Origin: Alphaproteobacteria bacterium
Lineage (GTDB): Bacteria > Pseudomonadota > Alphaproteobacteria > MPNO01
NCBI GenBank assembly: GCA_965200535.1
Contig: CBDAUF010000001.1
Coordinates: 1,162,102 to 1,226,101, forward strand
Length of the DNA: 64,000 nt
Direction of reading: 5' to 3'
In this document: positions 3,581 to 54,383 of the stretch, piece after piece
How the letters are laid out: every line of letters begins with the position of its first letter
How positions within the stretch are numbered: position 1 is the stretch's first letter
Position numbers and translations under genes: made by a program
Notes under the pieces: generated by a model
The model's database searches: none
What the model was told of the DNA's origin: nothing
The model's input: the letters and a program-made list of their open reading frames with translations, nothing else

Positions 3581-5602
3581 TCAGGCCTCCGCCCAGGCCG
3601 CCGGCAGGTCGGCCGGGGCCGGCGCCAGGATGCGTTCGGCAAGGGCGGCGGCCGGTTTGCGCAGCCGCCGGGGAAGCCGGCCCTGCGGCCAGCCGCGGCC
3701 GGCGAGATCCGGCACGGCGGCCTGGAACGGGACGACGATGCCGGGCGGCCTCTCGACCCCCGCCTCGGCCAGCAGCCCCGCGCCCGCGTTCCGCCGGAAC
3801 GCGCGCGTATGGTTCTGCACCAGCGCCACCGGCGCATTCGCGCCCGTCCCCATCGCCGCGAGGATGTGCGCCGCGCGCTGCGCGCCCGCCGTCGTCGGCT
3901 CGACCACCAGCACCCGCGCGTCCACCTCGGCGAGCAGCGCGAAGCAGGTTTCCGGATCGTCCATCCCGTCCACCAGCACCAATTGCGAGCGCCGCCGCAG
4001 CAGCGCCAGCAACCAGTCGAGCGCCGCCATCGGCGGCACCGGCGGCGGCTCCGGGCCGAGGCGGTAGGCGTAGACCGCGATCCGGTCCGACCGTTCGGTG
4101 CGCACCCCGTCGAGCACCTGCGGGTCGGAGAGGGTCGGCCCCGCCATGTCGAAGAGCTGGTCGAGGCCGGGCGCCGGGTCCACGTCGAGCTGGAGCGCCG
4201 CCGCGGCGACCGTCCGGCCGAGATCGAGCACCGAGACATAGCGCCCCTGTTCCGCCGCGCGCAGCGCGGTCGTGGCGGCGAGCGTGGTCGCCCCGCTGCC
4301 GCCGGTGCCGGCGAACCCGGCGACCCGCCCGCCGGCGTCGAAATCGTCGTCGTCGGCCGTGGCCCGCGCGACGGCCGCGCGCACCGCCGCCGCATCGATC
4401 GGCTTGACCAGATAGTCGCTGACCCCGGCGAGCAGGATTTCGCGCCCCGTGCGCGCCGTGTCGTAGGAGCCGACGGCGATCACCGCCGTGCCGACCTCGC
4501 AGACCTCCGCCAGCTCGTGCAGCGCACCGGCCGGATAGCCGACCCCGTCGATATCGACGATGACGAGCTGGGCCGACTGCCCCTCGCCGAGCGCCGCCAC
4601 CGCGGCGCGCAGTCCGCCCGGCCAGACCTGCGGATCCTCGCAGCCGGGCGCCTGCCCCTCGAAATAGAGCAGCCCCTCGCGCAGCGCATTCTCGGTCTCC
4701 CCGTCCGTCGCGAAGGCGAGCGCCGCCGGCGGCCCCGCGGGCGCCGGCTCGGCGGGCGCATCGGGCGGTGCGGCATCGGCGCCGGGTGCGGTGTCCGGCA
4801 GGGTGTCCGGGGCGATGCCGGGGATGGTCTCCGGCGCGGCAGCCGGGGCGCCGGCGGGACCGGGCGGCGGGTCGGGCGCGAAGTCCGATAGGAGATCGGC
4901 CGCGAGATCGGCCCCGAAATCGTCGGCCTCCGGCGCTTCCGGGCGGTCGGGCGCGCCGGGGGGAAAATCGTCGAGCCCGTCCAGCAGCGCGGCCGCGAAA
5001 TCGGCGCCGGGCGGCTCCGCGCCGGGGTCCGGCTCCGGCGCGGCGCGGTCTTCCGGGTCCCGCACGCCGGCGGCGGCGGGACCGTCGGTCGGTGAAATAT
5101 GTGAAAAGTCGGCCGGATCGTCCTCGAACCCGTCCAGGAGCGCGCTCGCGAAATCGGTGTCGGGCGGGCCTGCTTCCGGCGCCGGCTTCGACTCTGGCGC
5201 GGCGGGGGCGGCGAACGCCGCCGGGGCAGGCGCGGCGTCCGGAGCGGCGGCGGGCGCATCGTCCGGGGGGCGGGCGTCTTCGTCATCGGGCGGAAACTCC
5301 GCGAGGCCGTCGAGCAGCGCGCTCGCGAAATCCGCATCGAACGGATCCGTATCGGACGGGTCTGCTTCGGACGGGGCCGTTTCGTGCCGGGTCCGCCCGG
5401 TATCGTCGGGTGTCGGCGGTTGCGCAGGGTCCCCGGCGTCCGCCGGCGCACCCGCGTCCACCGGCGCATCGTCGACGGGTCTATCGGCGGCGGGCGGATC
5501 GTCGGCCAGCCCCGCCAGCAGGGCGCTTTCGAGGTCGGCATCGACCGGCGGCGGATCGTCCGCCCGTCGCGCGGCTGTGTGCGGGGAGGTGTCGTGTGCC
5601 AT
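3581..5602 (-). CDS. tadZ: TadZ/CpaE pilus-assembly protein (receiver-like plus MinD/ParA-like ATPase) with a ~300-aa acidic repeat-containing N-terminal extension
   Basis: The C-terminal ~370 aa carry a receiver-like fold and the deviant Walker A (AGTGGSGATT). The N-terminal extension is Asp/Pro/Ala-rich and holds 5 copies of a D-[FL]-[AE]-S-A-LL-DG-L-x-[DE]-F-PP motif. The true start within the extension is unknown. Confidence 0.75.
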   Translation of the reverse strand: MAHDTSPHTAARRADDPPPVDADLESALLAGLADDPPAADRPVDDAPVDAGAPADAGDPAQPPTPDDTGRTRHETAPSEADPSDTDPFDADFASALLDGLAEFPPDDEDARPPDDAPAAAPDAAPAPAAFAAPAAPESKPAPEAGPPDTDFASALLDGFEDDPADFSHISPTDGPAAAGVRDPEDRAAPEPDPGAEPPGADFAAALLDGLDDFPPGAPDRPEAPEADDFGADLAADLLSDFAPDPPPGPAGAPAAAPETIPGIAPDTLPDTAPGADAAPPDAPAEPAPAGPPAALAFATDGETENALREGLLYFEGQAPGCEDPQVWPGGLRAAVAALGEGQSAQLVIVDIDGVGYPAGALHELAEVCEVGTAVIAVGSYDTARTGREILLAGVSDYLVKPIDAAAVRAAVARATADDDDFDAGGRVAGFAGTGGSGATTLAATTALRAAEQGRYVSVLDLGRTVAAAALQLDVDPAPGLDQLFDMAGPTLSDPQVLDGVRTERSDRIAVYAYRLGPEPPPVPPMAALDWLLALLRRRSQLVLVDGMDDPETCFALLAEVDARVLVVEPTTAGAQRAAHILAAMGTGANAPVALVQNHTRAFRRNAGAGLLAEAGVERPPGIVVPFQAAVPDLAGRGWPQGRLPRRLRKPAAALAERILAPAPADLPAAWAEA

Positions 5603-5831: not shown

Positions 5832-5978
5832 CTACTTCATCTGACCGCTGAAAGCGGCGATCCCTGCCCCGGCGGCGGTGACGACCACACCGGCGAGGAT
5901 TGCGTATTCGAGGGCGGAGACGCCCTTGTTGCCGCGGAGGAAGGGACGGACGCGCCGCCATACATGCTCGATCTTCAT
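5832..5978 (-). CDS. flp: Flp/Fap-family pilin precursor (MKIEHVWRRVRPFLRGNKGVSALEYAILAGVVVTAAGAGIAAFSGQMK)
   Basis: 48 aa with the G/xxxEY prepilin motif (KGVSALEYAIL) followed by a hydrophobic helix. This is the C-terminal part of ORF 5832..6431. The printed sequence has a 1-nt discrepancy in this stretch. Confidence 0.8.
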   Translation of the reverse strand: MKIEHVWRRVRPFLRGNKGVSALEYAILAGVVVTAAGAGIAAFSGQMK

Positions 5979-7970: not shown

Positions 7971-9140
7971 TCACTCGCCGCGGTCGCTGCCGACCAGCGC
8001 GACCGCCCGCTGCATGGCCTTGCGGTAGGCGCGGCCCGGCCGGCCGGCGGCGCCGCCGGTGGCGCCCGCGTGCAGCGCCCGCTCGAACGGGATCACCGCA
8101 CCCGGGCGGCGGTCGGCGAGGGCGTAGCGGATATGCGCCGGCGACAGGGTGTAGCGGCGCATCCGGGTCGAGCACTGGACCAGCAGCGCCGGGGAGTCCG
8201 CCCCGAGCCGGGCCAGCAGGCGCACCGCGGTCGAGATGCTGGGCAGGGTGGGTTCGTAGACCAGCACCCTGCCGTCGGCCTGGCGCATGACCGCGAGCTG
8301 GGTCTCGGGGTCGGGCATCCCGGTCGCCAGCACGACATGGGTGCGGTTGGCCAGATACTTGAACAGCGCCGCCAGCACCGGCGCGGTGCGCGGCTTTTCC
8401 AGCCCGGCGGCCGGCGGGTGCGCGACCAGCGAGATGCCGGGGGCGGCGGGCGTCGTCAGGCCGCCGATCCGGTCGGGGTCGATCTCGAGTTCCGCATCGC
8501 CCTCGCCCTCCCCCTCGGCAATGGCGGCAGCGGCGGCGGCGGGCGTCCCCAGCAGGGCCGGCAGCCCGCCCACCGGCTCGGCCCCGAGCAGCGGCGGCAG
8601 CCGGCCCGAGACGGGGTCGAGATCGACCACCGAGGCGGTGCGGCCGTCCGCCGCGATGCCGCGCGCGACCGCGGCGACCAGGGTGGAGGTGCCGCTGCCG
8701 GGGCTGCCGGCGAAGGCGATCACCTTGCCGGCGTAGAGATGCTCGGGCGCATCGTCGGCGACCGCCGCCGCGGCCTCGCGCACCGCCGCCGCGGTCACCG
8801 GCTTGACCAGATAGTCGGCGATGCCGCACTGCATCAGCGTCCGGCCGAACTGCGCGGTGTCGGTCGAGCCGAGGGCGACCAGCGCGGTGTCGAACGCGCA
8901 GACACCGGTGAGCTGCCGGGCCGCCTCGCCGGGCTCGGCCGCGCCGTCGAGATCGACGAACACCAGCTTCGCCGGCGGCTCCGCGGCCAGCGTCCTGACC
9001 GCGGCCGCCAGGCGTCCGCGCTGTATCCGCGCATCGCGGCCGGCGAGCCCGGCGCGCAGCGCTCGCTCGGTCGCCGCGTCGGCCGCGAAGCCGCGCGCCC
9101 ACGGGCGCTTCGAGGGGCTGCGCCTGGGCGAGGTCGCCAT
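7971..9140 (-). CDS. second CpaE/TadZ-family protein (receiver-like plus MinD-like ATPase)
   Basis: Deviant Walker A (AGSPGSGTSTL), receiver-like segment KLVFVDLD...YLVKP. The ATG at 9140 (MATSPRR...) was chosen; the ORF upstream to 9572 is Arg/Gly-rich junk. Confidence 0.75.
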   Translation of the reverse strand: MATSPRRSPSKRPWARGFAADAATERALRAGLAGRDARIQRGRLAAAVRTLAAEPPAKLVFVDLDGAAEPGEAARQLTGVCAFDTALVALGSTDTAQFGRTLMQCGIADYLVKPVTAAAVREAAAAVADDAPEHLYAGKVIAFAGSPGSGTSTLVAAVARGIAADGRTASVVDLDPVSGRLPPLLGAEPVGGLPALLGTPAAAAAAIAEGEGEGDAELEIDPDRIGGLTTPAAPGISLVAHPPAAGLEKPRTAPVLAALFKYLANRTHVVLATGMPDPETQLAVMRQADGRVLVYEPTLPSISTAVRLLARLGADSPALLVQCSTRMRRYTLSPAHIRYALADRRPGAVIPFERALHAGATGGAAGRPGRAYRKAMQRAVALVGSDRGE

Positions 9141-9532: not shown

Positions 9533-9814
9533 TTCGGGCACAGCCTCTCCCCACCGATGCAAAGGGCGGCACGCAGGATAACCGACGAGCCCGCCGCCTG
9601 CGAGAGGGGGATTTCGGGGGCGCTCTTTGCCGCCTGCGCCCCCGCGGTCCCGGTCAGGGATGGGGTGCCCAACGAATGGATCGACTGCGTGGCGCAGTCC
9701 GCGGCCGGGCACGCCTTGCGCGACGCCGACGCGGCGGACCGGACGGCGGCCGCGGCCACCGGGATGGTCGGGCGGAGGATCGGGTAGCGGGAACCGGCGG
9801 CGGGGTCGGGAGGA

Positions 9815-10138
9815 TCACCTGCCGCGGTCCGGGGCCGGAACCGCGGGCACGGCGCCGGCGGGGAGGACCAGCGCCGGGAACTTTTGCCAGATCACGTTCG
9901 GCGGCACCGGTCCCTCGGTTCCCTCCGCCGTCATGACCGGGGCCACCTCCACCTCACCCGCATCCTCGAACCGCTTGCGGATGTCGGCGACCTGTCTGGA
10001 GAGATCGGAAAACCCGGTTTCGAGAGTCCCGATGTCTGCGGCGAGAAGGGTGACACGCTCGTCGAGCATGGAGAAGGCGAAGGCGGTGACCAGGCTCGGA
10101 ACCACGGTCGGAACGAGGATGCGCGCCCATTCCTTCAT
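9815..10138 (-). CDS. small membrane-anchored coiled-coil protein (MKEWARILVPTVVPSLVTAFAFSML... then DLSRQVADIRKRFED)
   Basis: Lower-GC gene. Its ATG at 10138 overlaps the stop of the upstream 34-aa ORF (ATGA). It is related to the second half of the 80-aa protein at 10453..10695. Confidence 0.45.
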   Translation of the reverse strand: MKEWARILVPTVVPSLVTAFAFSMLDERVTLLAADIGTLETGFSDLSRQVADIRKRFEDAGEVEVAPVMTAEGTEGPVPPNVIWQKFPALVLPAGAVPAVPAPDRGR

Positions 10139-10239
10139 ATCCGTTCTCTCCACCCGACCGGTTCCACGTGCTCCTTCGCGGCCTCGTTCACGATCCCGGC
10201 GATACCGTTCTCCAGCGCCCGAACGATGGCTTCCGCCAT
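10135..10239 (-). CDS. 34-aa peptide MAEAIVRALENGIAGIVNEAAKEHVEPVGWRERI, a paralog of the N-terminus of the 10453..10695 gene
   Basis: Hand translation. About 43 nt of near-identical DNA is shared with 10633-10676. It is translationally coupled to the downstream gene. Confidence 0.35.
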   Translation of the reverse strand: MAEAIVRALENGIAGIVNEAAKEHVEPVGWRERI

Positions 10240-10452
10240 CGCGCGAAGCCTTTAGCCGGCGTAGCCGGCGTTTATCGTCCAGCCGCGACGCGGTCCTGCG
10301 AGCCGCCGCCGGCGGTTCCGGTCAGGGATCGGGTCCCCTTTGAAACGGCGCTCGAACCCGTGCCCTGCGACGGTCCCGGCGCCCTCGAGGGGTTGCCCGT
10401 TCGGGGGCCGTCGTCCGGACGGGCGGTCCTGCACGACCGGCGGACCGTGCGT

Positions 10453-10695
10453 TCAGACCGATTTGTCCGGCCAGTCGCCGGTGCCCCTGGCATAGGCGAT
10501 CTCGCCCCGGATCTCCGCTATATCCGACTTCAGGTCGGCGATGTCCTGTTTGGTCGCCATGTTGGCGGCTATGGAGTGCCGCAGCGCCTCCACCGACGCC
10601 TTGACCGGTTCTATGTTCTTCTTGACGATCTCGGTGATGCCGTTCTCCAGCGCCCGAACGATGGCTTCCGCCATCGCGTCATCCTTGGCCGACAT
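10453..10695 (-). CDS. 80-aa coiled-coil protein, DUF1640-like (…MATKQDIADLKSDIAEIRGEI…)
   Basis: Lower-GC ORF. It has an N-terminal MAEAIVRALENGI segment and the ATK-DIA-L heptad segment reminiscent of DUF1640 proteins such as 53916..54383. Confidence 0.5.
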   Translation of the reverse strand: MSAKDDAMAEAIVRALENGITEIVKKNIEPVKASVEALRHSIAANMATKQDIADLKSDIAEIRGEIAYARGTGDWPDKSV

Positions 10696-10983
10696 TTCCT
10701 ACGCTCCGGTTGACGAGCCGACTATCGGTTCGCCCCATATACTGCATCGGGATGATCCTGTCAATCACTCAACCGGGGATAGCGGTGCGCACGAAGACCC
10801 GCATGAAGCGGGAAACGGGCCCCTCGCCGAACCGGGGGGACGGGCAGGGCTTCGGTGCGGGAGATAACGGATCGCAGGGTGGACTTGGCATAGCTCTCTC
10901 ATGCCGGCATTCGCAGGGCCGGCTAATCTGGTACTGAAAAATACTCGATAATCCGGCGTTCGACCGCGCCAACGGGCGGCCGT

Positions 10984-12129
10984 ATGCTGCGGGCGCGGCC
11001 CGGCGCGTCAGGCGCCCGCCTCTCCCCGCCGCCGGCGCAGCGAGGACACCGGTTGACGCTCGAGAACGTCGAGGCCATCGCGCCCAATCTGAAACGCCGG
11101 CTGTCGGGCATCACCGCGACGGTGGTGCGCCTGCTGCCGGTGCAGGCGCGGTCGATCGGCATCGCCGCGACCGGGCCGGGGCTGCCGCCGCAGGTGCCGC
11201 AGGTGCCGCTCCGCTCCGTGCTGCTGATGCCGGGGCGGAAACGCCGGGTGTGGCATGCGCGGCGCAACAACGAGATGCTGCTCGGGCTGGTCCTGCGCCA
11301 CGTGCTGGGCAAGCGCCTGAAGCTCGTGTTCACCTCGGCATCGCGGCCCGAGCACAATCATTCCCGATACAAGCGCTGGCTGCTCTCGCGCATGGATGCG
11401 GTGGTCGCGACCTCGGACGGCACCGCATCCTACATCGGCGCAATCTCCCGCTTGCGGCAGCCCCCGCAGGTGATACCGCACGGCATCGATACCGGGGCCT
11501 TTTGCGCGCCCGCCGACCGCCGCGAGCAGCGGCGCGCGCTGGGCCTGCCCGAGGGCGTGACCGTCGGCTGTTTCGGGCGCATCCGCCGCCACAAGGGCAC
11601 GGATGTGTTCGTCGATGCGATGCTCGACGTGCTGGCGCGCCGCGCCGATGCGGTCGCCCTGGTCATGGGCCGCGCAACCGGGAAGCACCAAGCCTATCTC
11701 CGGGCGCAGCGCGCCAAGGTTGCTGAGGCGGGGCTGGAGGGCCGCATCCTGTTCCTGCCCGAGGCGCCGGTGGACGACATGCCGCGCTGGTACCGGGCGC
11801 TCGACCTGTTCGTCGCCCCGCAGCGCTGGGAGGGGTTCGGCCTCACCCCGCTGGAGGCCATGGCCTGCGGCGTCCCGGTGGTGGCGACGACGGCGGGCGC
11901 GTTCGAGGAACTGGTGGTCGATGGCGGGACCGGCCGCCTGGTGCCGCCCGGCGACGCCCGGCGGATGAGCGCGGCGGTGGGCGAGGCGCTCGATGCCCCC
12001 GGCACCCTCGCCCGGTGGTCGGCGGCGGCCCGCCGCCATGTCGAGCAGGGCTTCCGGATCGAGGACGAGGCGGCGGCGCTGAACGCGCTTTACCGCAAGT
12101 TGCTGGACGGTGATGACGGGGGTGGTTGA
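10984..12129 (+). CDS. GT4-family glycosyltransferase
   Basis: EGFGLTPLEAMACGVPVVAT motif and a Rossmann-like GT-B C-terminal half. The start may instead be TTG at about 11053. Confidence 0.8.
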   Translation: MLRARPGASGARLSPPPAQRGHRLTLENVEAIAPNLKRRLSGITATVVRLLPVQARSIGIAATGPGLPPQVPQVPLRSVLLMPGRKRRVWHARRNNEMLLGLVLRHVLGKRLKLVFTSASRPEHNHSRYKRWLLSRMDAVVATSDGTASYIGAISRLRQPPQVIPHGIDTGAFCAPADRREQRRALGLPEGVTVGCFGRIRRHKGTDVFVDAMLDVLARRADAVALVMGRATGKHQAYLRAQRAKVAEAGLEGRILFLPEAPVDDMPRWYRALDLFVAPQRWEGFGLTPLEAMACGVPVVATTAGAFEELVVDGGTGRLVPPGDARRMSAAVGEALDAPGTLARWSAAARRHVEQGFRIEDEAAALNALYRKLLDGDDGGG

Positions 12130-12376
12130 GCTGGCCGATAATGGCGGGAAACCGTCGCCGCAGTACCCGAGTCGCTGCGCACATTGATTGGAAAGCCCGG
12201 CCCCGTGGAGAAAGCGCGTATCGAGGAGTTTCTTTCTATAGCGAACCCCGACTGGGGTCCGACCGGCGACCGTTTTCCCGAGCACCGCCCGATCGCCCAT
12301 ATTCGCGATCCGGCGGGACAGTTGGTATGATATATCGAGTTGCGTTTACTTCAGCAAAAGCGATCCGGTCGGACGA

Positions 12377-12784
12377 TTGATCGCGTCCTGGGCGGCATTC
12401 TGTCGCGACCATCGCAATGTCTGGGATCAGCTTCTCCTGACCCTGGCGTGGTTTCGCGTGGCAAAACACATGCCAATCGCCAGCCTTTGGCTGAATGAGG
12501 GAATTTTTCGGTTTCCCCGACCGAGAATACGCGACTGGCGCGACCGTGTCTTCTATTACCCATACAAGCGTAAAATTCGACCGTTCATCGATCAGAAACA
12601 AGCCTCGCGCTCGCTAAAATCGTTCATAAATGCATCCGGGAACAGCGCCGGAATGCAAGGGGAAGAACTGGGCTCAGAAAACGTTTCTTCGGGCTTCCGC
12701 AATGCATTGAAACGCTGTGATTTCAGTTTCGATGCGCGAATTGAGACCATTCTACCCCCCCCCCCCCGCGGGGGACAGCGATAG
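12377..12784 (+). CDS. hypothetical protein (low-GC island); its 3' end contains the poly-C tract (…ILPPPPRGGQR)
   Basis: ORF-track entry only, with no recognisable family. It ends in TAG-TAG immediately before the next ATG. Confidence 0.25.
   Translation: MIASWAAFCRDHRNVWDQLLLTLAWFRVAKHMPIASLWLNEGIFRFPRPRIRDWRDRVFYYPYKRKIRPFIDQKQASRSLKSFINASGNSAGMQGEELGSENVSSGFRNALKRCDFSFDARIETILPPPPRGGQR
12755..12767. repeat. homopolymeric C13 tract followed by GCGGGGG
   Basis: Counted directly in the sequence. It lies 21 nt upstream of the ATG at 12788 and inside the last codons of ORF 12377..12784. Confidence 0.9.
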
Positions 12785-12787
12785 TAG

Positions 12788-13546
12788 ATGACAGCCAGGC
12801 GAAAATCGCGCCTGGAGCGCCTTCTGTCCTTGAACTGGCACCGCAAGCGCTGGGGTGCTTCGAAGCATGTCGCCGCCGGCGGGAGAGGCGACCTCTCCGC
12901 CATGAAGACGGATATCGTCGAGGCGGGAACGCCGATACAGACACGCGGTTCCGAGAAGTCGCTCGATCTCCACCTCGCCAATCTCCGGGACGAGTTCTCG
13001 GGACAACCGGAATTGATTTGGTACCATGCCAAGCTGATCGTCCTGATCAGACGCGAGTTCCGCACATCGGAAAACTATTCACAATTTCGGTTGCTTTGGG
13101 ATGCCGAACACACTTTTCTGTGCGAGAATCTGAACATCCGATGGCTGGTTTCGGCAGCGGACACCATTGCTGATCATGACCGGGATCCCGAGATACGCGC
13201 GGCGGCGATGATGGCGACCCTTCTCGTCAACACCATCAAGATGCAGGAAAGCGAGCGCTACGTGTGCGATGCGTCGAGCTTGCCGCCCGATCCTGCTCGC
13301 ATCACCCGTCTCGGGAACGAATTGGTGCCGCTCTTTTCCGGGATGTCCTCTTTCTCGGTAGGCACCGACGATACGCTCAGGAACATGTACTGGCGGCTTG
13401 AGCCGTTCTTCGGGGCCGGACCGGGGGGAAAAATCCTGAAGACAGTCTGGTCCCGGCTCCAGGTCGAAGACACGGTTTTCGCCCGAATGCGCAAACTGCA
13501 CCGCCGCAACCGTACGCGCTGGTGGGACGATACCGATCAGCGCTGA
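12788..13546 (+). CDS. hypothetical protein (252 aa, low-GC island)
   Basis: Longest ORF in the region, preceded by GGGGGA 12 nt upstream. No recognisable family. It is convergent with the GT25 gene. Confidence 0.4.
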   Translation: MTARRKSRLERLLSLNWHRKRWGASKHVAAGGRGDLSAMKTDIVEAGTPIQTRGSEKSLDLHLANLRDEFSGQPELIWYHAKLIVLIRREFRTSENYSQFRLLWDAEHTFLCENLNIRWLVSAADTIADHDRDPEIRAAAMMATLLVNTIKMQESERYVCDASSLPPDPARITRLGNELVPLFSGMSSFSVGTDDTLRNMYWRLEPFFGAGPGGKILKTVWSRLQVEDTVFARMRKLHRRNRTRWWDDTDQR

Positions 13547-14328
13547 CCGCCGATGAAATGGCTGCGGTCGAGGCGGATTTGACGGCGTCGGGCATGATGC
13601 GCATGGCACAGCACCCGGACCGCGATCCCCATCTCGATCCCTATGCGACGCAGCCGGAAACCGGGGGTCCACCGTCTTACTCGCTTCTCGCGGTCGGCAC
13701 CGATAGTCGAGGGAGCCCGGATCGGCGCTGCCAGACCGTACCTGGCGGCGCGGTCGAGTTGTACCGCACAGGCCGGTTCGATCTGGAAGCTGCGCAGTTC
13801 GTACGCCAGACTGATTACAGCATCGGCAGGCCCGGCCCTGCGCGACGCGTTCTCCAGAAGCATCCTCGCCCCGGACGGCCATAACAGATAGGCAACCGCG
13901 CCGCTGCGGTCCTGGAAGAGCCTGTGAAGCCGATGTTCCGGCGTGAGGTGCCGGCCCGCGCGTGCAACGGTCTTGCGCTGCTGCCGAACTTCGAGCGTCA
14001 GGCGATCGATCTCCGCAAGTTGTCCGGCTGCCGCCAGAACGCCGGGTGTATGCGCTGACAGGATGGCGTCGTCCTCGAGGATGAGAACCGGCATTTCCAT
14101 CTCGGCGACCCGGTTCCAGGCGGCGATATGGCTGAGGAGACAGGCGCGTTCGGCGTCCCCCAGCGGCCTTGCCCAACTGTTCCAGTAGCTGTCGCTTCGC
14201 GCCGTCGAGGCGTCGCCGGACTCGACGGCCTCGAGTCTCTCGAATTTCAGCCCGAGCCTGTCGAGCTGCTCGCTCATGAATTTCATGCGCTCCGTTTCGG
14301 CGGCGAGATTGATTACCAGACAATGCAT
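13537..14328 (-). CDS. GT25-family glycosyltransferase (LPS/LOS core galactosyl-transferase-like)
   Basis: MHCLVINLAAETERMKFMSEQL N-terminus typical of GT25. The ATG at 14328 was chosen; the upstream MDRIRTNCEDRP segment is a translated copy of the 44-bp repeat. Confidence 0.75.
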   Translation of the reverse strand: MHCLVINLAAETERMKFMSEQLDRLGLKFERLEAVESGDASTARSDSYWNSWARPLGDAERACLLSHIAAWNRVAEMEMPVLILEDDAILSAHTPGVLAAAGQLAEIDRLTLEVRQQRKTVARAGRHLTPEHRLHRLFQDRSGAVAYLLWPSGARMLLENASRRAGPADAVISLAYELRSFQIEPACAVQLDRAARYGLAAPIRAPSTIGADREKRVRRWTPGFRLRRIGIEMGIAVRVLCHAHHARRRQIRLDRSHFIGGQR

Positions 14329-14448
14329 GCCAGTCTTTGACAACGGTATCGGGGCGTGGTGCGGGGTCAGGAACGGCGCTCTCGCTTCCACGGACGGGTA
14401 AGGCCCGACCGGGATTCCTTGAGCGCCGAATCTCCGGTCTCGACTACC

Positions 14449-14492
14449 GGGCCGATCCTCGCAGTTCGTCCGGATGCGGTCCACCGCCGGCG
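14449..14492. repeat. 44-bp direct repeat, copy 1 (GGGCCGATCCTCGCAGTTCGTCCGGATGCGGTCCACCGCCGGCG), 121-164 nt upstream of the GT25 start
   Basis: 42 of 44 positions are identical to copy 2 at 16405..16448. Confidence 0.8.
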
Positions 14493-14548
14493 TGGCGAGC
14501 CCGTACCGCGCGGGACGTCGAGAAGCGCTTCTCGAAGCCGCGGCTGCC

Positions 14549-15151
14549 TTACCCCGCCGCTCCCGAGACCCGGAGCAGTCGGCTCACATCCCGCCACAGC
14601 TTGTCGAAGGAGGGCGCCGCCGCGCGCGCCGCGTCCATATCGAAGCGGGCGGTAAACGAAGCCTGGTGGAGTGTTTCGCGATAGGTCTTGCCCGGCCGCA
14701 TCCGCGCGGCCAGCCAGCCTTTCGCATTCGCGATCGCCTCGGGGTTGCCCGGCGGCGCGACGGCGGGATCGGCGTCCCGCCATTCGATCAGCGACGCGGC
14801 CGCCGCGATAAACCAAGCCTCGTATTCCATCTTCGCCAGCACCGCGCAGACGGTCCGGTCCGGTCTGGCGTCGCGGGCGCGCTGCAGGAGTTCCGGCGCG
14901 AGCCTCGCCGGGCAATCGCCGTTGGCGTCGAACAGGAGCAGGATACAGCCGTTCGCTGCCGCCCTTCCGGCGGCGAGGTCGATGGTGCGTTCGAGTTCGC
15001 CGCCTCGCAGGATGCGGTTGCGGCTCACCCGGATCGGCCTCGGGATGTCGAGCGCGATATCGGGCGACACCTGTGCGGCGATCCGGCGCAGCAGCACCGG
15101 AACCGCCCGGACCTCGCCATGCCCCTCGACGACGGTCGCTATTCGATGCAC
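14549..15151 (-). CDS. DUF4276-like protein (possible Toprim-like partner of the upstream ATPase)
   Basis: GTG at 15151 overlaps the ATPase 3' end by 13 nt. N-terminal VHRIATVVEGHGEVRAVPVLLRRI and C-terminal MEYEAWF motifs as recalled for DUF4276. The remaining 5' part of ORF 14549..16090 is artefact. Confidence 0.6.
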   Translation of the reverse strand: MHRIATVVEGHGEVRAVPVLLRRIAAQVSPDIALDIPRPIRVSRNRILRGGELERTIDLAAGRAAANGCILLLFDANGDCPARLAPELLQRARDARPDRTVCAVLAKMEYEAWFIAAAASLIEWRDADPAVAPPGNPEAIANAKGWLAARMRPGKTYRETLHQASFTARFDMDAARAAAPSFDKLWRDVSRLLRVSGAAG

Positions 15152-16362
15152 GCGCCGGGACCCGGGCCGAACAGATCGATGCGGCGCGGCGCCGGCCTCG
15201 AAGCCTCGGGATCCGGCTCGATCTGGTCCATCCTGAGCAGTTCGCCCGCGGTGTACAGGCGCTTCTTCAGGGCCGCACGGCCGACCTCGTCGAGCGGGCC
15301 GATACGGCTCTCGCCGTGCTCCAGCGCGACGGCAATAATCGATTCCGCAGGAATATCCTCGTCGTCGAGCAGGTCGGGGCTGTGGCTGGTCACCAGGATC
15401 TGCGCGTTGTCCGCGGCATCCCTGAGGCTGTCGATCAGGACGCCGAAGGCGGCGGGGTGAAGGGCGATCTCCGGCTCCTCGATACCGACGAGCCGCCGCG
15501 CCGCCCCGGCGGTTCCGGCACCCTGAAAGACCGCGGTCAGCACGCCGAGCGCGCGCAGGGTGCCATCCGACATGTTGGCGGCGAGAAAGCGCCACGGATG
15601 CTGCGCACCGCGAACCTCCTGGCGAAACTCCAGGGTCTCGCGCGGTCCCACCGGGCGCCGGTCGACGCCGTCGATGCCCGGCGCGACCTCGCCCAGATAG
15701 TCCTCGATTCTCCGCTTGAAATCGGGTGCGCGCGCGGCGAGGCCGGAGAGGACGCTCGCCAGATTGCTCCCGTCGCGTTTCAGCAGCGTTCCCGGATCCG
15801 GCGGCTGGAGGTCGCGGATGGCTTCCGGGTTGAGATTGTAAACCCCCGTCGACGACAGCGCCTCGTAGACCGGGCGGAAGGCATCGATCCCGGAGACCGC
15901 GACCAGATACAGGCGGTCGGCGGCGGCGAGCGGGGCCGGCGAGACGGTGATCCGGCGAACCCGGCCCTTCTCCACCCTGAAATAGTGCGAACCCGATCCG
16001 TCCCGCGCAATCGACAGGCACTCCTCGCTGCGCACCGCGTATCCACGGTCGGGCATGGAGCCGACCGTGAAGGCGTAGTGTCCGCGCCACGCCTCCAAGC
16101 CGAATTCGACGCGAATCCCGAAATGGTTGGGATGGCCGCCCGAGCGCCGGCGCACCTCGCCGATGCCGCCGCGGTCGCGCAGCGCGTGGTCGATCGAGAA
16201 GCGGAGCGCATCGGCGACGAAGTGGAGGGCGTCGAGAAAATTGCTCTTCCCCGATCCGTTCGGCCCGACGAGGAAGGAGACCTGCGCCGGCGAAATGTCG
16301 CAGGCGCCGATGCTCTTGTAGTTTCTGAGCCTTATCCGCGTCAGTAGTCGGCGGTCAGGCAT
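15139..16362 (-). CDS. AAA_21/AAA_15-type ABC ATPase (OLD/AbiLi/AriA-like)
   Basis: Walker A GPNGSGKSN, Walker B IGIEEPE, TSHSP. ATG at 16362 with GGAGG upstream. The first 26 codons of the track ORF are a translated repeat copy. Confidence 0.8.
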   Translation of the reverse strand: MPDRRLLTRIRLRNYKSIGACDISPAQVSFLVGPNGSGKSNFLDALHFVADALRFSIDHALRDRGGIGEVRRRSGGHPNHFGIRVEFGLEAWRGHYAFTVGSMPDRGYAVRSEECLSIARDGSGSHYFRVEKGRVRRITVSPAPLAAADRLYLVAVSGIDAFRPVYEALSSTGVYNLNPEAIRDLQPPDPGTLLKRDGSNLASVLSGLAARAPDFKRRIEDYLGEVAPGIDGVDRRPVGPRETLEFRQEVRGAQHPWRFLAANMSDGTLRALGVLTAVFQGAGTAGAARRLVGIEEPEIALHPAAFGVLIDSLRDAADNAQILVTSHSPDLLDDEDIPAESIIAVALEHGESRIGPLDEVGRAALKKRLYTAGELLRMDQIEPDPEASRPAPRRIDLFGPGPGACIE

Positions 16363-16404
16363 CTCCAGCCCTCCAGTCGGTCGGTGCGCCGGCGCCGGGA
16401 CGGC

Positions 16405-16448
16405 GGGCCGATCCTCGCAGTTCGTTCGGGTGCGGTCCACCGCCGGCG
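16405..16448. repeat. 44-bp direct repeat, copy 2, 43-86 nt upstream of the ATPase start
   Basis: See copy 1 at 14449..14492. Confidence 0.8.
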
Positions 16449-52883: not shown

Positions 52884-53084
52884 TCAAGTCACCCCCCTGC
52901 CGTAACGGGTCCCGGCGGTCGTTGACGGCAGTTCTCCAAATCTTCTCTTGTTGTCCTTTCGGAAGCACGCCTCGAACGGTTCGCGACAGCGGCGTGCCTG
53001 TTCGAGGCCGAAGGTCTCGATGGTGTGGTCGGCGATCGTGGCAAGGTCGGTTTCGGCGAGAGAGGCGAGCCGATAGTCAGTCAT
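52884..53084 (-). CDS. parE: ParE/RelE-family toxin, apparently C-terminally truncated or degraded (66 aa)
   Basis: MTDYRLASLAETDLATIADHTIETFGLEQARR… ParE-like N-terminus. The C-terminal third is missing or diverged. Its ATG overlaps the parD 3' end by 8 nt. Confidence 0.45.
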   Translation of the reverse strand: MTDYRLASLAETDLATIADHTIETFGLEQARRCREPFEACFRKDNKRRFGELPSTTAGTRYGRGVT

Positions 53085-53331
53085 GCCGCGCGCGATAGCG
53101 CTGCTCCGCCTCGGCCCACACTTCCGCTACCGTCCTGTCGCTCGCACCGCCTTCCAGACCGTCCTGGACGGCCCGTTTCAAGGCGCGGAATTGCGCATTC
53201 TGTTCCTGGTCTCGGCGGATCAGATCGCGAAAATACTCGCTGTCATTTCCGTACTCGCCGCTGGCAACCAGGGTTCGGATCCATTGCTCCTGCCGATCCG
53301 TCACGGTGATGCTCTTCTTGACCAGCGGCAT
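53077..53331 (-). CDS. parD: ParD-family antitoxin (CC2985/PF03693-like)
   Basis: MPLVKKSITVTDRQEQWIRTLVASGEYGNDSEYFRDLIRRDQEQ… ATG at 53331 with AAGGAA upstream. Confidence 0.75.
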   Translation of the reverse strand: MPLVKKSITVTDRQEQWIRTLVASGEYGNDSEYFRDLIRRDQEQNAQFRALKRAVQDGLEGGASDRTVAEVWAEAEQRYRARHD

Positions 53332-53339
53332 GTTGGTTC

Positions 53340-53370
53340 CTTTCGACGATCGGAATATATCCGAATATAT
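53340..53370. promoter_or_regulatory. AT-rich near-palindrome TCGGAATATATCCGAATATATCGGA immediately upstream of parD (putative autoregulatory operator)
   Basis: Read directly. Its position is typical for ParD operators. Confidence 0.4.
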
Positions 53371-53545
53371 CGGATGACACGCTCTGCGCCAACGGCGCGG
53401 CATCGGGGAAGCCTTCGGCCTAGCCAGCGTGTTCATCACCGCAGGGCTGGCGTTGGCCCGGATCGACCGTTCGGTGACCGACATCGATCACGGTGCATCC
53501 GTGCCGCCCCGGTTCGATCCCGATGACTCATTGCGGGACTGCTAG

Positions 53546-53915: not shown

Positions 53916-54383
53916 ATGACCGGGGCGATCGCCTTCGACACCCACCGCTTCGTCAAACGTCTGACGGAGAGCGGCTTCACCGAGAGGCAGGCCGAGACGC
54001 TGGCGGAAGAGCATGTCGCCCTGCTCAACGCCAATCTTGCGACCAAGGCCGACAGCGCGGCGATCCATGCCGAGATAACGCGGGTCGAGGCCGGCATCGA
54101 GACGCTGCGTCAGGAGACCCGGGCCGACATAGCGCAGGTCGAGGCCGGCGTCGAGACGCTGCGTCAGGAGACTCGGGCCGACATAGCGCGGGTCGAGGCC
54201 GGCATCGAGGCGCTGCGTCAGGAGACCCAAGCCGACATAGCGCGGGTCGAGGCCGGCATCGAGGCGCTGCGTCAGGAGACCCGGGCGGGCATGGAGGCCG
54301 TGAAGGCCGATTTGCTGAAATGGCTGTTCGGCGCGCTGGTTGCCCAGGGAGGTCTGATCGTCGCCCTGGTCAAGCTGCTGTAG
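53916..54383 (+). CDS. DUF1640 coiled-coil protein with C-terminal TM anchor
   Basis: MTGAIAFDTHRFVKRLTESGFTERQAETLAEE…LATKADSAAIHAEI… then four 17-aa repeats and a TM tail. Confidence 0.7.
   Translation: MTGAIAFDTHRFVKRLTESGFTERQAETLAEEHVALLNANLATKADSAAIHAEITRVEAGIETLRQETRADIAQVEAGVETLRQETRADIARVEAGIEALRQETQADIARVEAGIEALRQETRAGMEAVKADLLKWLFGALVAQGGLIVALVKLL
54082..54290 (+). repeat. 4 x 51-bp near-perfect tandem repeat inside the DUF1640 gene (17-aa unit RVEAGIEALRQETRADIA)
   Basis: Read directly. The antisense ORF 53436..54230 (GLLTQRLDAGLDPRY repeats) is its mirror artefact. Confidence 0.85.

Follow-up and report, generated by a model that had tools for sequence, protein, structure and literature searches.

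The DUF1640/CCDC90-like family (PF07798) has bacterial and mitochondrial members (MCUR1 and CCDC90B). DUF1640 membrane proteins bear a beta-layer motif where the stalk starts (PMC4786415). The motif, with the consensus [aliphatic]-A-T-K-[polar]-[DE], is also found in the coils of Tcar0761/DUF3782 (Hartmann et al. 2016, PMC4786415). The N-terminal coils of this second group carry nonad arrays, and Tcar0761 is a soluble coiled-coil protein without a transmembrane (TM) segment. Another coiled-coil family, DUF2730 (PF10805), belongs to phages and prophages. With regard to gene organization, pairs of a small open reading frame (ORF) and a gene coupled through an overlapping ATGA are general in bacterial operons, and the upstream ORF of such pairs is usually unrelated. 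Here, we analysed a stretch of 64,000 nucleotides (hereafter, the window) from an alphaproteobacterial contig (CBDAUF010000001.1, positions 1,162,102 to 1,226,101) and focused on a block of three small ORFs on its minus strand, A80, B1, and B2 (Table 1). Our best explanation of the block, to which we would give an even chance, is a lineage-specific orphan unit that occupies a patch of lower GC content on the outer border of a conserved tad cluster; this unit was duplicated in tandem, and its copies then diverged. The full translations are MSAKDDAMAEAIVRALENGITEIVKKNIEPVKASVEALRHSIAANMATKQDIADLKSDIAEIRGEIAYARGTGDWPDKSV for A80 and MAEAIVRALENGIAGIVNEAAKEHVEPVGWRERI for B1, and B2 begins with MKEWARILVPTVVPSL (MKEWARILVP...).

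Two blocks of sequence are shared by the unit that holds A80 (unit A) and the unit that holds B1 and B2 (unit B). The first is a 5' module, in which positions 10187-10243 and 10622-10678 are identical at 53 of 57 nt (93%; blastn E 1e-18 within the window), with perfect identity over 39 nt; past a 12-nt indel, identity falls to 74% over another 31 nt. When gaps are allowed, the two copies can be aligned to about 20 nt before the ATG, across an AAGG Shine-Dalgarno (SD) sequence (sequence from the repeated module: CGCGATGGCGGAAGCCATCGTTCGGGCGCTGGAGAACGG). Both copies encode MAEAIVRALENGI, and residues 8-31 of A80 align with residues 1-28 of B1 with 19 of 28 positions identical (E 1e-9), a score equalled by none of 5000 shuffles. 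The original prediction, made from the letters of the window, had reported a near-identical repeat at 10207-10248 and 10633-10676 with the same peptide encoded by both copies; both points are confirmed, the coordinates being about 8 nt out of register. The second block is a 30-nt element downstream of each unit (GGG[CG]ACCC[CG]ATCCCTGACCGG[GA]ACCGC), whose copies have the same orientation and 26 of 30 positions in common. Only these two copies exist in the window, and none of 100 shuffles gave any chance match. The element is absent from related tad loci, and a common RNA fold was rejected for it, as the two copies share no predicted fold. Between the 5' module and the 30-nt element, no DNA similarity was found between units A and B. 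Since the two blocks stand in the same order and orientation around both units, they suggest a tandem duplication of the whole gene unit. The duplication proposed originally is borne out and appears wider than claimed, as it takes in the downstream element in addition to the 5' module.

Table 1 Coordinates of features of the A/B block and of the DUF1640 comparator gene in the window
Feature	Coordinates	Strand	Remarks
A80	10453..10695	(-)	80-aa ORF; predicted soluble and all-helical
B1	10135..10239	(-)	34-codon ORF
B2	9815..10138	(-)	107-aa ORF; predicted bitopic membrane protein with N-terminal TM segment
5' module, A copy	10603..10693	(-)	SD, ATG, and 28 codons; perfect 39 nt at 10640-10678
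5' module, B copy	10156..10262	(-)	SD, ATG, and 28 codons; perfect 39 nt at 10205-10243
Predicted hairpin, A copy	10658..10677	(-)	Identical to the B copy; would bury A80 M8
Predicted hairpin, B copy	10223..10242	(-)	8 bp, GCGAUGGC-GGAA-GCCAUCGU, GNRA loop; would bury the B1 AUG
B2 SD sequence GGAGAG	10146..10151	(-)	7 nt before the B2 ATG, within the last codons of B1
30-nt element, copy 1	10309..10338	(-)	115 nt past the A80 stop
30-nt element, copy 2	9641..9670	(-)	145 nt past the B2 stop
Beta-layer motif of A80	10543..10560	(-)	M46-A-T-K-Q-D51, consensus match; then coil IADLKSDIAEIRGEIAYA
DUF1640/CCDC90-like gene (comparator)	53916..54383	(+)	True family member, PF07798 E 3e-18, 66.7 bits

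The GC content at third codon positions (GC3) is 0.85 in A80, 0.77 in B1, and 0.82 in B2, and that at second positions is 0.42-0.49, in a window of 69% GC. This pattern is like that of the neighbouring real genes and thus supports coding on the minus strand for all three frames. Local GC content is 0.62-0.68 from about 9950 to 11000, compared with 0.74-0.83 in the tad flank, in agreement with the lower GC of the block noted originally. Furthermore, a Logan contig from an independent assembly (L001, SRR33960550) is 99.98% identical to the window over 6420 nt and encodes identical B1 and B2 frames. It terminates at position 10234, after exactly 30 nt of the perfect repeat, where a graph with k=31 would branch. 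Because they are reproduced in this independent assembly, the repeat and the B1/B2 frames are not assembly artefacts.

A80 has two candidate starts, M1 with GGAG 8 nt upstream and M8 (at 10674) with AAGGA upstream. Its AlphaFold2 monomer model is a single helix over residues 3-72 (pLDDT 87), and no TM segment was found in A80 or B1 (maximum 19-residue hydropathy of about 0.6; 0.62 for A80). The MATKQD of A80 is an exact fit to the beta-layer consensus, with N-M-A-T-K-Q-D-I-A as the matched core. Among PDB entries, the Tcar0761 construct 5APZ matches best (E 0.026), with ANMATKDDLA against ANMATKQDIA in A80. Like Tcar0761, A80 lacks a TM segment and is predicted to be a soluble coiled-coil protein, but it has one motif only instead of a nonad array. 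If A80 behaves like Tcar0761 and the stalk of DUF1640 proteins, it would be a soluble parallel coiled coil, probably a trimer. A80 shows that a beta-layer motif of the MATKxD type occurs in a predicted soluble protein of only 80 aa that lacks the DUF1640 architecture, and such a protein could serve as a minimal model of the motif.

The genes of the block had been described as DUF1640-like and grouped with the larger DUF1640 gene at 53916 in one small paralogous family that duplicates, splits, and repeats. The gene at 53916 is indeed a true PF07798 member, with an FDT N-domain, an NLATKAD motif, a C-terminal TM segment, and more than 1800 homologues. It is also repetitive, with a tandem array of four 54-nt units at 54069-54286 (92% matches) that encode 18-aa units of the type ADIARVEAGIEALRQETR, whereas A80, with only 80 aa, has no internal repeats. 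Against Pfam PF07798 itself (gathering threshold 33.5 bits), A80, B1, and B2 gave no match at E<=10. What A80 shares with the family is the beta-layer motif followed by a DIAxLKxDIAxIR-type coil, and its kinship with the 53916 protein is confined to these two parts (shuffle p 2e-4). To keep the comparison independent of A80, a DUF1640 alignment (A4) was built from homologues of the window's own DUF1640 gene. hhalign aligned only about residues 39-66 of A80 to it (83% probability, E 8e-6), and the profile matches as a whole fall in residues 40-70. An hmmsearch of A80 with a DUF1640 profile not chosen via A80 gave 20.6 bits, and the independent DUF1640 hidden Markov model (HMM) matched the coil weakly (residues 43-70, 13.8 bits). 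An hhalign result with another alignment (A2, 95.9%) was discounted because the sequences in A2 had been chosen for their similarity to A80. On the other hand, the DUF1640 N-domain, FDT...(K/R)L..AG...QAE, gave no hhalign alignment to the N-module of A80 or to the A80+B1 alignment.

Larger libraries gave a similar picture for A80. HMMER searches against 1.84 billion representatives returned 29 matches below 1e-3, all on the coil, with a best E of 3e-8 and none below 1e-10. Twelve of 13 aligned library matches pass as PF07798 (aligned together with the window's DUF1640 protein). Many matches are classic bacterial DUF1640 proteins, with FDT...AG..QAE...NLATKxDIAELK repeats and a C-terminal TM segment, and other top matches are generic coils of the DIAELK type. 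The best Pfam match of A80 is DUF2730, over residues 24-67, but it is below threshold (18.1 bits, with the cutoff at 24.9; E 0.003). Several PHROG families match both A80 and the DUF1640 gene at 53916. More generally, scans of A80, B1, and B2 against Pfam, PHROGs, NCBIfam, and PADLOC yielded only sub-threshold coiled-coil noise. Given that A80 has neither the FDT N-domain nor the C-terminal TM anchor, we do not regard it as a member of the DUF1640 family, though it shares the motif and the type of coil. As for B1, it matched nothing except A80, and its comparison with the DUF1640 N-terminus gave a shuffle p of 0.13. B2 gave nothing by hhalign against either DUF1640 profile; at the aligned place of the motif it has a degenerate IGTLET, which does not fit the beta-layer consensus, and its only TM segment is N-terminal. 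Hence, the label DUF1640-like suits A80 in its motif and in the profile matches of its coil, and does not suit it with respect to PF07798, the N-domain, and the TM anchor. It does not hold for B1 and B2 in the DUF1640 tests, the B2 scores given below being hints. Kinship with the 53916 gene in a common family is weak for A80 and B2 and not detectable for B1.

The arrangement of B1 and B2 resembles that of coupled gene pairs. As described originally, B1 stops after 34 aa and its TGA overlaps the ATG of B2 as ATGA (10135-10138; ATATGAAGG), while the length of B2 is 107 aa and not 106 aa. The A80 homology of B1 ends at ...GAA CCG GTC (EPV), directly ahead of the B2 SD sequence. The next 18 nt and the stop (GGG TGG AGA GAA CGG ATA TGA) give GWRERI, the last six codons of B1, and since the homology ends just before the B2 SD sequence, these codons are read-through of the B2 ribosome-binding site. 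A comparable 5-mer SD core lies upstream of only 2.5% of the ATGs in the window, and around the B2 start, less RNA structure is predicted than for shuffled sequence (z +1.5). B1 and B2 thus have both the stop/start overlap and the downstream SD sequence inside the upstream ORF that are found in ATGA-coupled pairs. In contrast to the usual pair, the upstream ORF would here be a truncated paralogue of a neighbouring gene, and the coupling is predicted from these signals. Programmed frameshifting was rejected by eye, as there is no slippery heptamer at CGG AUA UGA.

The original prediction saw in B1 and B2 a split gene. According to this alternative, they are the halves of a once-continuous paralogue of approximately 140 aa (N-module, TM segment, and coil), which is decaying or was recently split by a 1-nt indel near 10138-10155. 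We consider this unlikely. Far upstream of the B2 ATG, its frame still contains no stop, as far as at least 10300, and one indel between 10138 and 10155 would fuse it with the B1 frame; further, the N-module, coil, and downstream element are ordered as in A80, and the source may be a long-read metagenome-assembled genome (MAG), as its closest relatives appear to be. However, the stop coincides with a well-placed GGAGAG and ATG where little RNA structure is predicted, a hallmark of genuine coupled starts, and the upstream part of the B2 frame translates as an Arg/Gly-rich sequence that does not look like coding sequence. A sequencing indel is excluded by the same frames in the independent assembly. 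Moreover, searches of protein libraries (5.8 billion clusters and 1.84 billion representatives), GTDB genomes, JGI metagenomes, plasmids, and phages turned up no unsplit relative. With the A80 homology ending before B2's own SD sequence, a split is not demonstrated, and the anatomy of the junction leads us to favour two coupled frames over a fresh frameshift.

Another alternative is that there was no paralogy of whole units. In this case, about 105 nt of the A80 5' end and the 30-nt element would have been copied or converted around an unrelated B2, and B1 would be a by-product upstream ORF without function. In line with the TM anchor claimed originally, B2 has a TM-like segment at residues 7-25 (coordinates 10064-10120; Kyte-Doolittle 19-residue mean of 1.98). 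A low-confidence model of B2 has a helix to about residue 59 and then a disordered Pro-rich tail. The suggestion that DLSRQVADIRKRFED of B2 resembles the coil of A80 was found to be marginal, as the sole one of the sequence claims: residues 42-63 of A80 and 32-54 of B2 are identical at 8 of 23 positions (blastp E 0.028, shuffle p 0.017-0.05). Residues 21-54 of B2 matched the independent DUF1640 HMM with E 0.003 at Z=1, in the same register as the A80 alignment, and the comparison of B2 with the window's DUF1640 protein gave a shuffle p of 0.007. As about eight such tests were made, these similarities are hints, not proof. The absence of paralogy is in line with the lack of DNA similarity beyond the two short blocks, the loss of significance of A80 versus B2 after multiple-test correction, the negative hhalign profile comparison of B2 with DUF1640, the presence of an SD sequence of its own before B2, and the weak SD sequence of B1 (AAAGG), whose AUG lies in a predicted stem. 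Nevertheless, one duplication is the simpler explanation for two blocks that flank both genes in matching order and orientation, and the stretch of B2 from residue 21 to 54 aligns to A80 and to the DUF1640 HMM in one register. The GC3 of B1 is coding-like too, though sequence copied from A80 would bring this with it in any case. Overall, we judge whole-unit duplication the better account and its absence improbable.

Two further identities of B2 were rejected. It is not a Flp pilin or pseudopilin, as it has no G/xxxxEY motif and a real Flp-like gene is located at 5832-5978. A phage lysis cassette, consisting of a spanin-like B2 and the adjacent lipoprotein, was dropped because no phage genes lie nearby and no phage matches were obtained. 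In addition, three syntenic tad loci (L002, L012, and L016) have a short part of the lipoprotein gene in the corresponding position.

The shared blocks might also be kept at the RNA level. The start-codon hairpin and the 3' element would then co-regulate the two units as common control sites, by way of an RNA-binding protein, a small RNA, or a thermosensor. This would explain perfect identity at synonymous sites over 39 nt with diverged flanks, and the same 8-bp hairpin with a GGAA loop is predicted over the AUG in both contexts. The fold predicted for the 39-mer has -16.7 kcal/mol (z -2.35; 3 of 200 shuffles fold as well). Yet these z-scores are modest (no more than -1.4 for the A80 context), a pair of copies from a single genome gives no covariation to test, no Rfam match was found between 9000 and 11500 at E<=1, and the 3' elements have no fold in common. 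As gene conversion accounts for the perfect identity without any function, we regard regulation through these blocks as very unlikely. No sigma-70 promoter was found in a scan of the region, and its sole terminator-like hairpin (10255-10269) points for the plus strand. Just upstream of B1, at 10253-10271, lies a palindrome, GCCGGC-TAC-GCCGGC, with a 9-nt sequence present twice (TAGCCGGCG); it scores as a terminator for the plus strand only, and no plus-strand gene is evident there. A still slimmer chance is given to the reading that the 39-nt hairpin and the 30-nt element are what is functional here, as the ends of a small cassette-like module, co-regulated by RNA or homogenised by directed recombination, with interchangeable bodies; if true, the bacterium would diversify small envelope-associated coiled-coil proteins beside its pilus genes.

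According to the tandem duplication that we prefer, an ancestral gene unit would have been duplicated, with the 5' module and the 30-nt element kept while the middle diverged beyond DNA alignment. The module of both units consists of an SD sequence, an ATG, and 28 codons of an amphipathic helix. Copy A would have given rise to A80, a long soluble helix with the MATKQD beta-layer and then a short coil. Copy B would have led to B1, made of 28 A-type codons and six from the B2 leader, its TGA overlapping the ATG of B2, and B2 would be an inner-membrane-anchored helix with a proline-rich tail. B1 and B2 would then be two translationally coupled frames and not a fresh pseudogene. B1 might be a mini-protein that supplies the shared N-terminal helix to pair with A80, or mainly an upstream coupling frame. 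The 39 perfect nucleotides amid diverged sequence are best read as a recent gene-conversion tract between old paralogues. In terms of function, the sequences suggest a soluble coiled coil (A80) beside a membrane-anchored coil (B2).

Several points weigh against this account. A80, B1, and B2 are predicted coding frames. Exact look-ups in a public gene index found no called-gene record for A80 (with either start), B1, or an antisense ORF of 181 aa, although such records exist for other proteins of this 1.97-Mb contig, namely B2, CpaF, and the DUF1640 protein. With A80 and B1 not called as genes, protein-database searches would miss relatives of this kind, and small genes like them may be under-counted in databases. 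B1 is possibly untranslated, given its weak SD sequence and an AUG within a predicted 8-bp stem. Paralogy of the gene bodies (A80 and B2) depends on marginal scores from about eight tests, and the coil matches of A80 to DUF1640 could be convergent. The A80 trimer and any pairing of A80 with B1 are inference alone. Finally, no homologues were found in any searched collection. The locus is a clean small example of orphan mini-gene evolution, with tandem duplication, divergence of the body, and a retained 5' conversion tract, in which a truncated paralogue would have become an upstream frame coupled to the gene of a membrane protein. We see in it the ordinary evolution of small genes and no new system; its practical value is modest, and it has no bearing on how the tad pilus works.

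The orphan status of the block is based on searches at both the protein and the DNA level. A word-indexed search of 5.8 billion protein clusters returned nothing for A80, and for B2 only its own entry. Scans for peptide patterns in the DNA of viral contigs, GTDB genomes, and JGI metagenomes (scanned twice) found no relative. Plasmid and phage sequences gave no match by tblastn either, whether the query was A80 or an artificial fusion of B1 and B2, and tblastn detected no A80, B1, or B2 homologue in 80 CpaF-anchored loci of relatives. A single unsplit gene in relatives was also looked for, and no relative of any of the three was found at all.

Downstream of the block on the same strand are a small lipoprotein gene, a CpaE-like gene, two small genes without family matches, and a Flp-like prepilin gene, and further along a 673-aa gene whose C-terminal part is CpaE-like, followed by the genes for CpaF, TadB, and TadC. 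Upstream, a GT4 glycosyltransferase gene is divergently oriented. The source genome is missing from the GTDB representatives. Its nearest relatives are MAGs that carry the labels Alphaproteobacteria, Defluviicoccus, or Thalassobaculaceae, and their CpaF is up to 83% identical. In four of their loci (L002, L007, L012, and L016), the entire tad cluster of the window is present from the CpaE-like gene through TadC, and three of the four have a short match to the small lipoprotein gene. None of these four contains a homologue of A80, B1, or B2; instead, they carry upstream a divergent gene for a protein of approximately 720 aa that is absent from the window. Such syntenic loci without the three genes indicate that the block is a lineage-specific addition at the tad edge and not a tad component, and the original description of the genes as lying next to the tad locus is right only with respect to position.

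Some minor observations were made on the cluster and on the rest of the window. The Flp-type prepilin-like gene at 5832-5978 (minus strand; 48 aa, …KGVSALEYAILAG…) matches Flp_Fap with E 0.0017, below the Pfam cutoff, and sits in a local GC dip (0.63) within the tad cluster. The cluster seems to hold two CpaE/TadZ-like proteins, encoded on the minus strand at 3581-5602 (673 aa) and 7971-9140 (389 aa). The 389-aa protein has weaker tblastn matches (31-42% identity) at the C-terminal part of the 673-aa protein in loci without a separate 389-aa copy. A ParD-type antitoxin domain (PF03693, 1.5e-6) is encoded at 53077-53484 on the minus strand, immediately before the DUF1640 gene. Near the A/B block, 12200-13300 has a clearly lower GC content (0.53-0.60) and no convincing genes, and is followed by a GT25 lipopolysaccharide glycosyltransferase gene (13537-14484) and an AAA_21/AbiEii-type ATPase gene (15139-16440); the region from 12200 to 16440 beside the block looks flexible or foreign.

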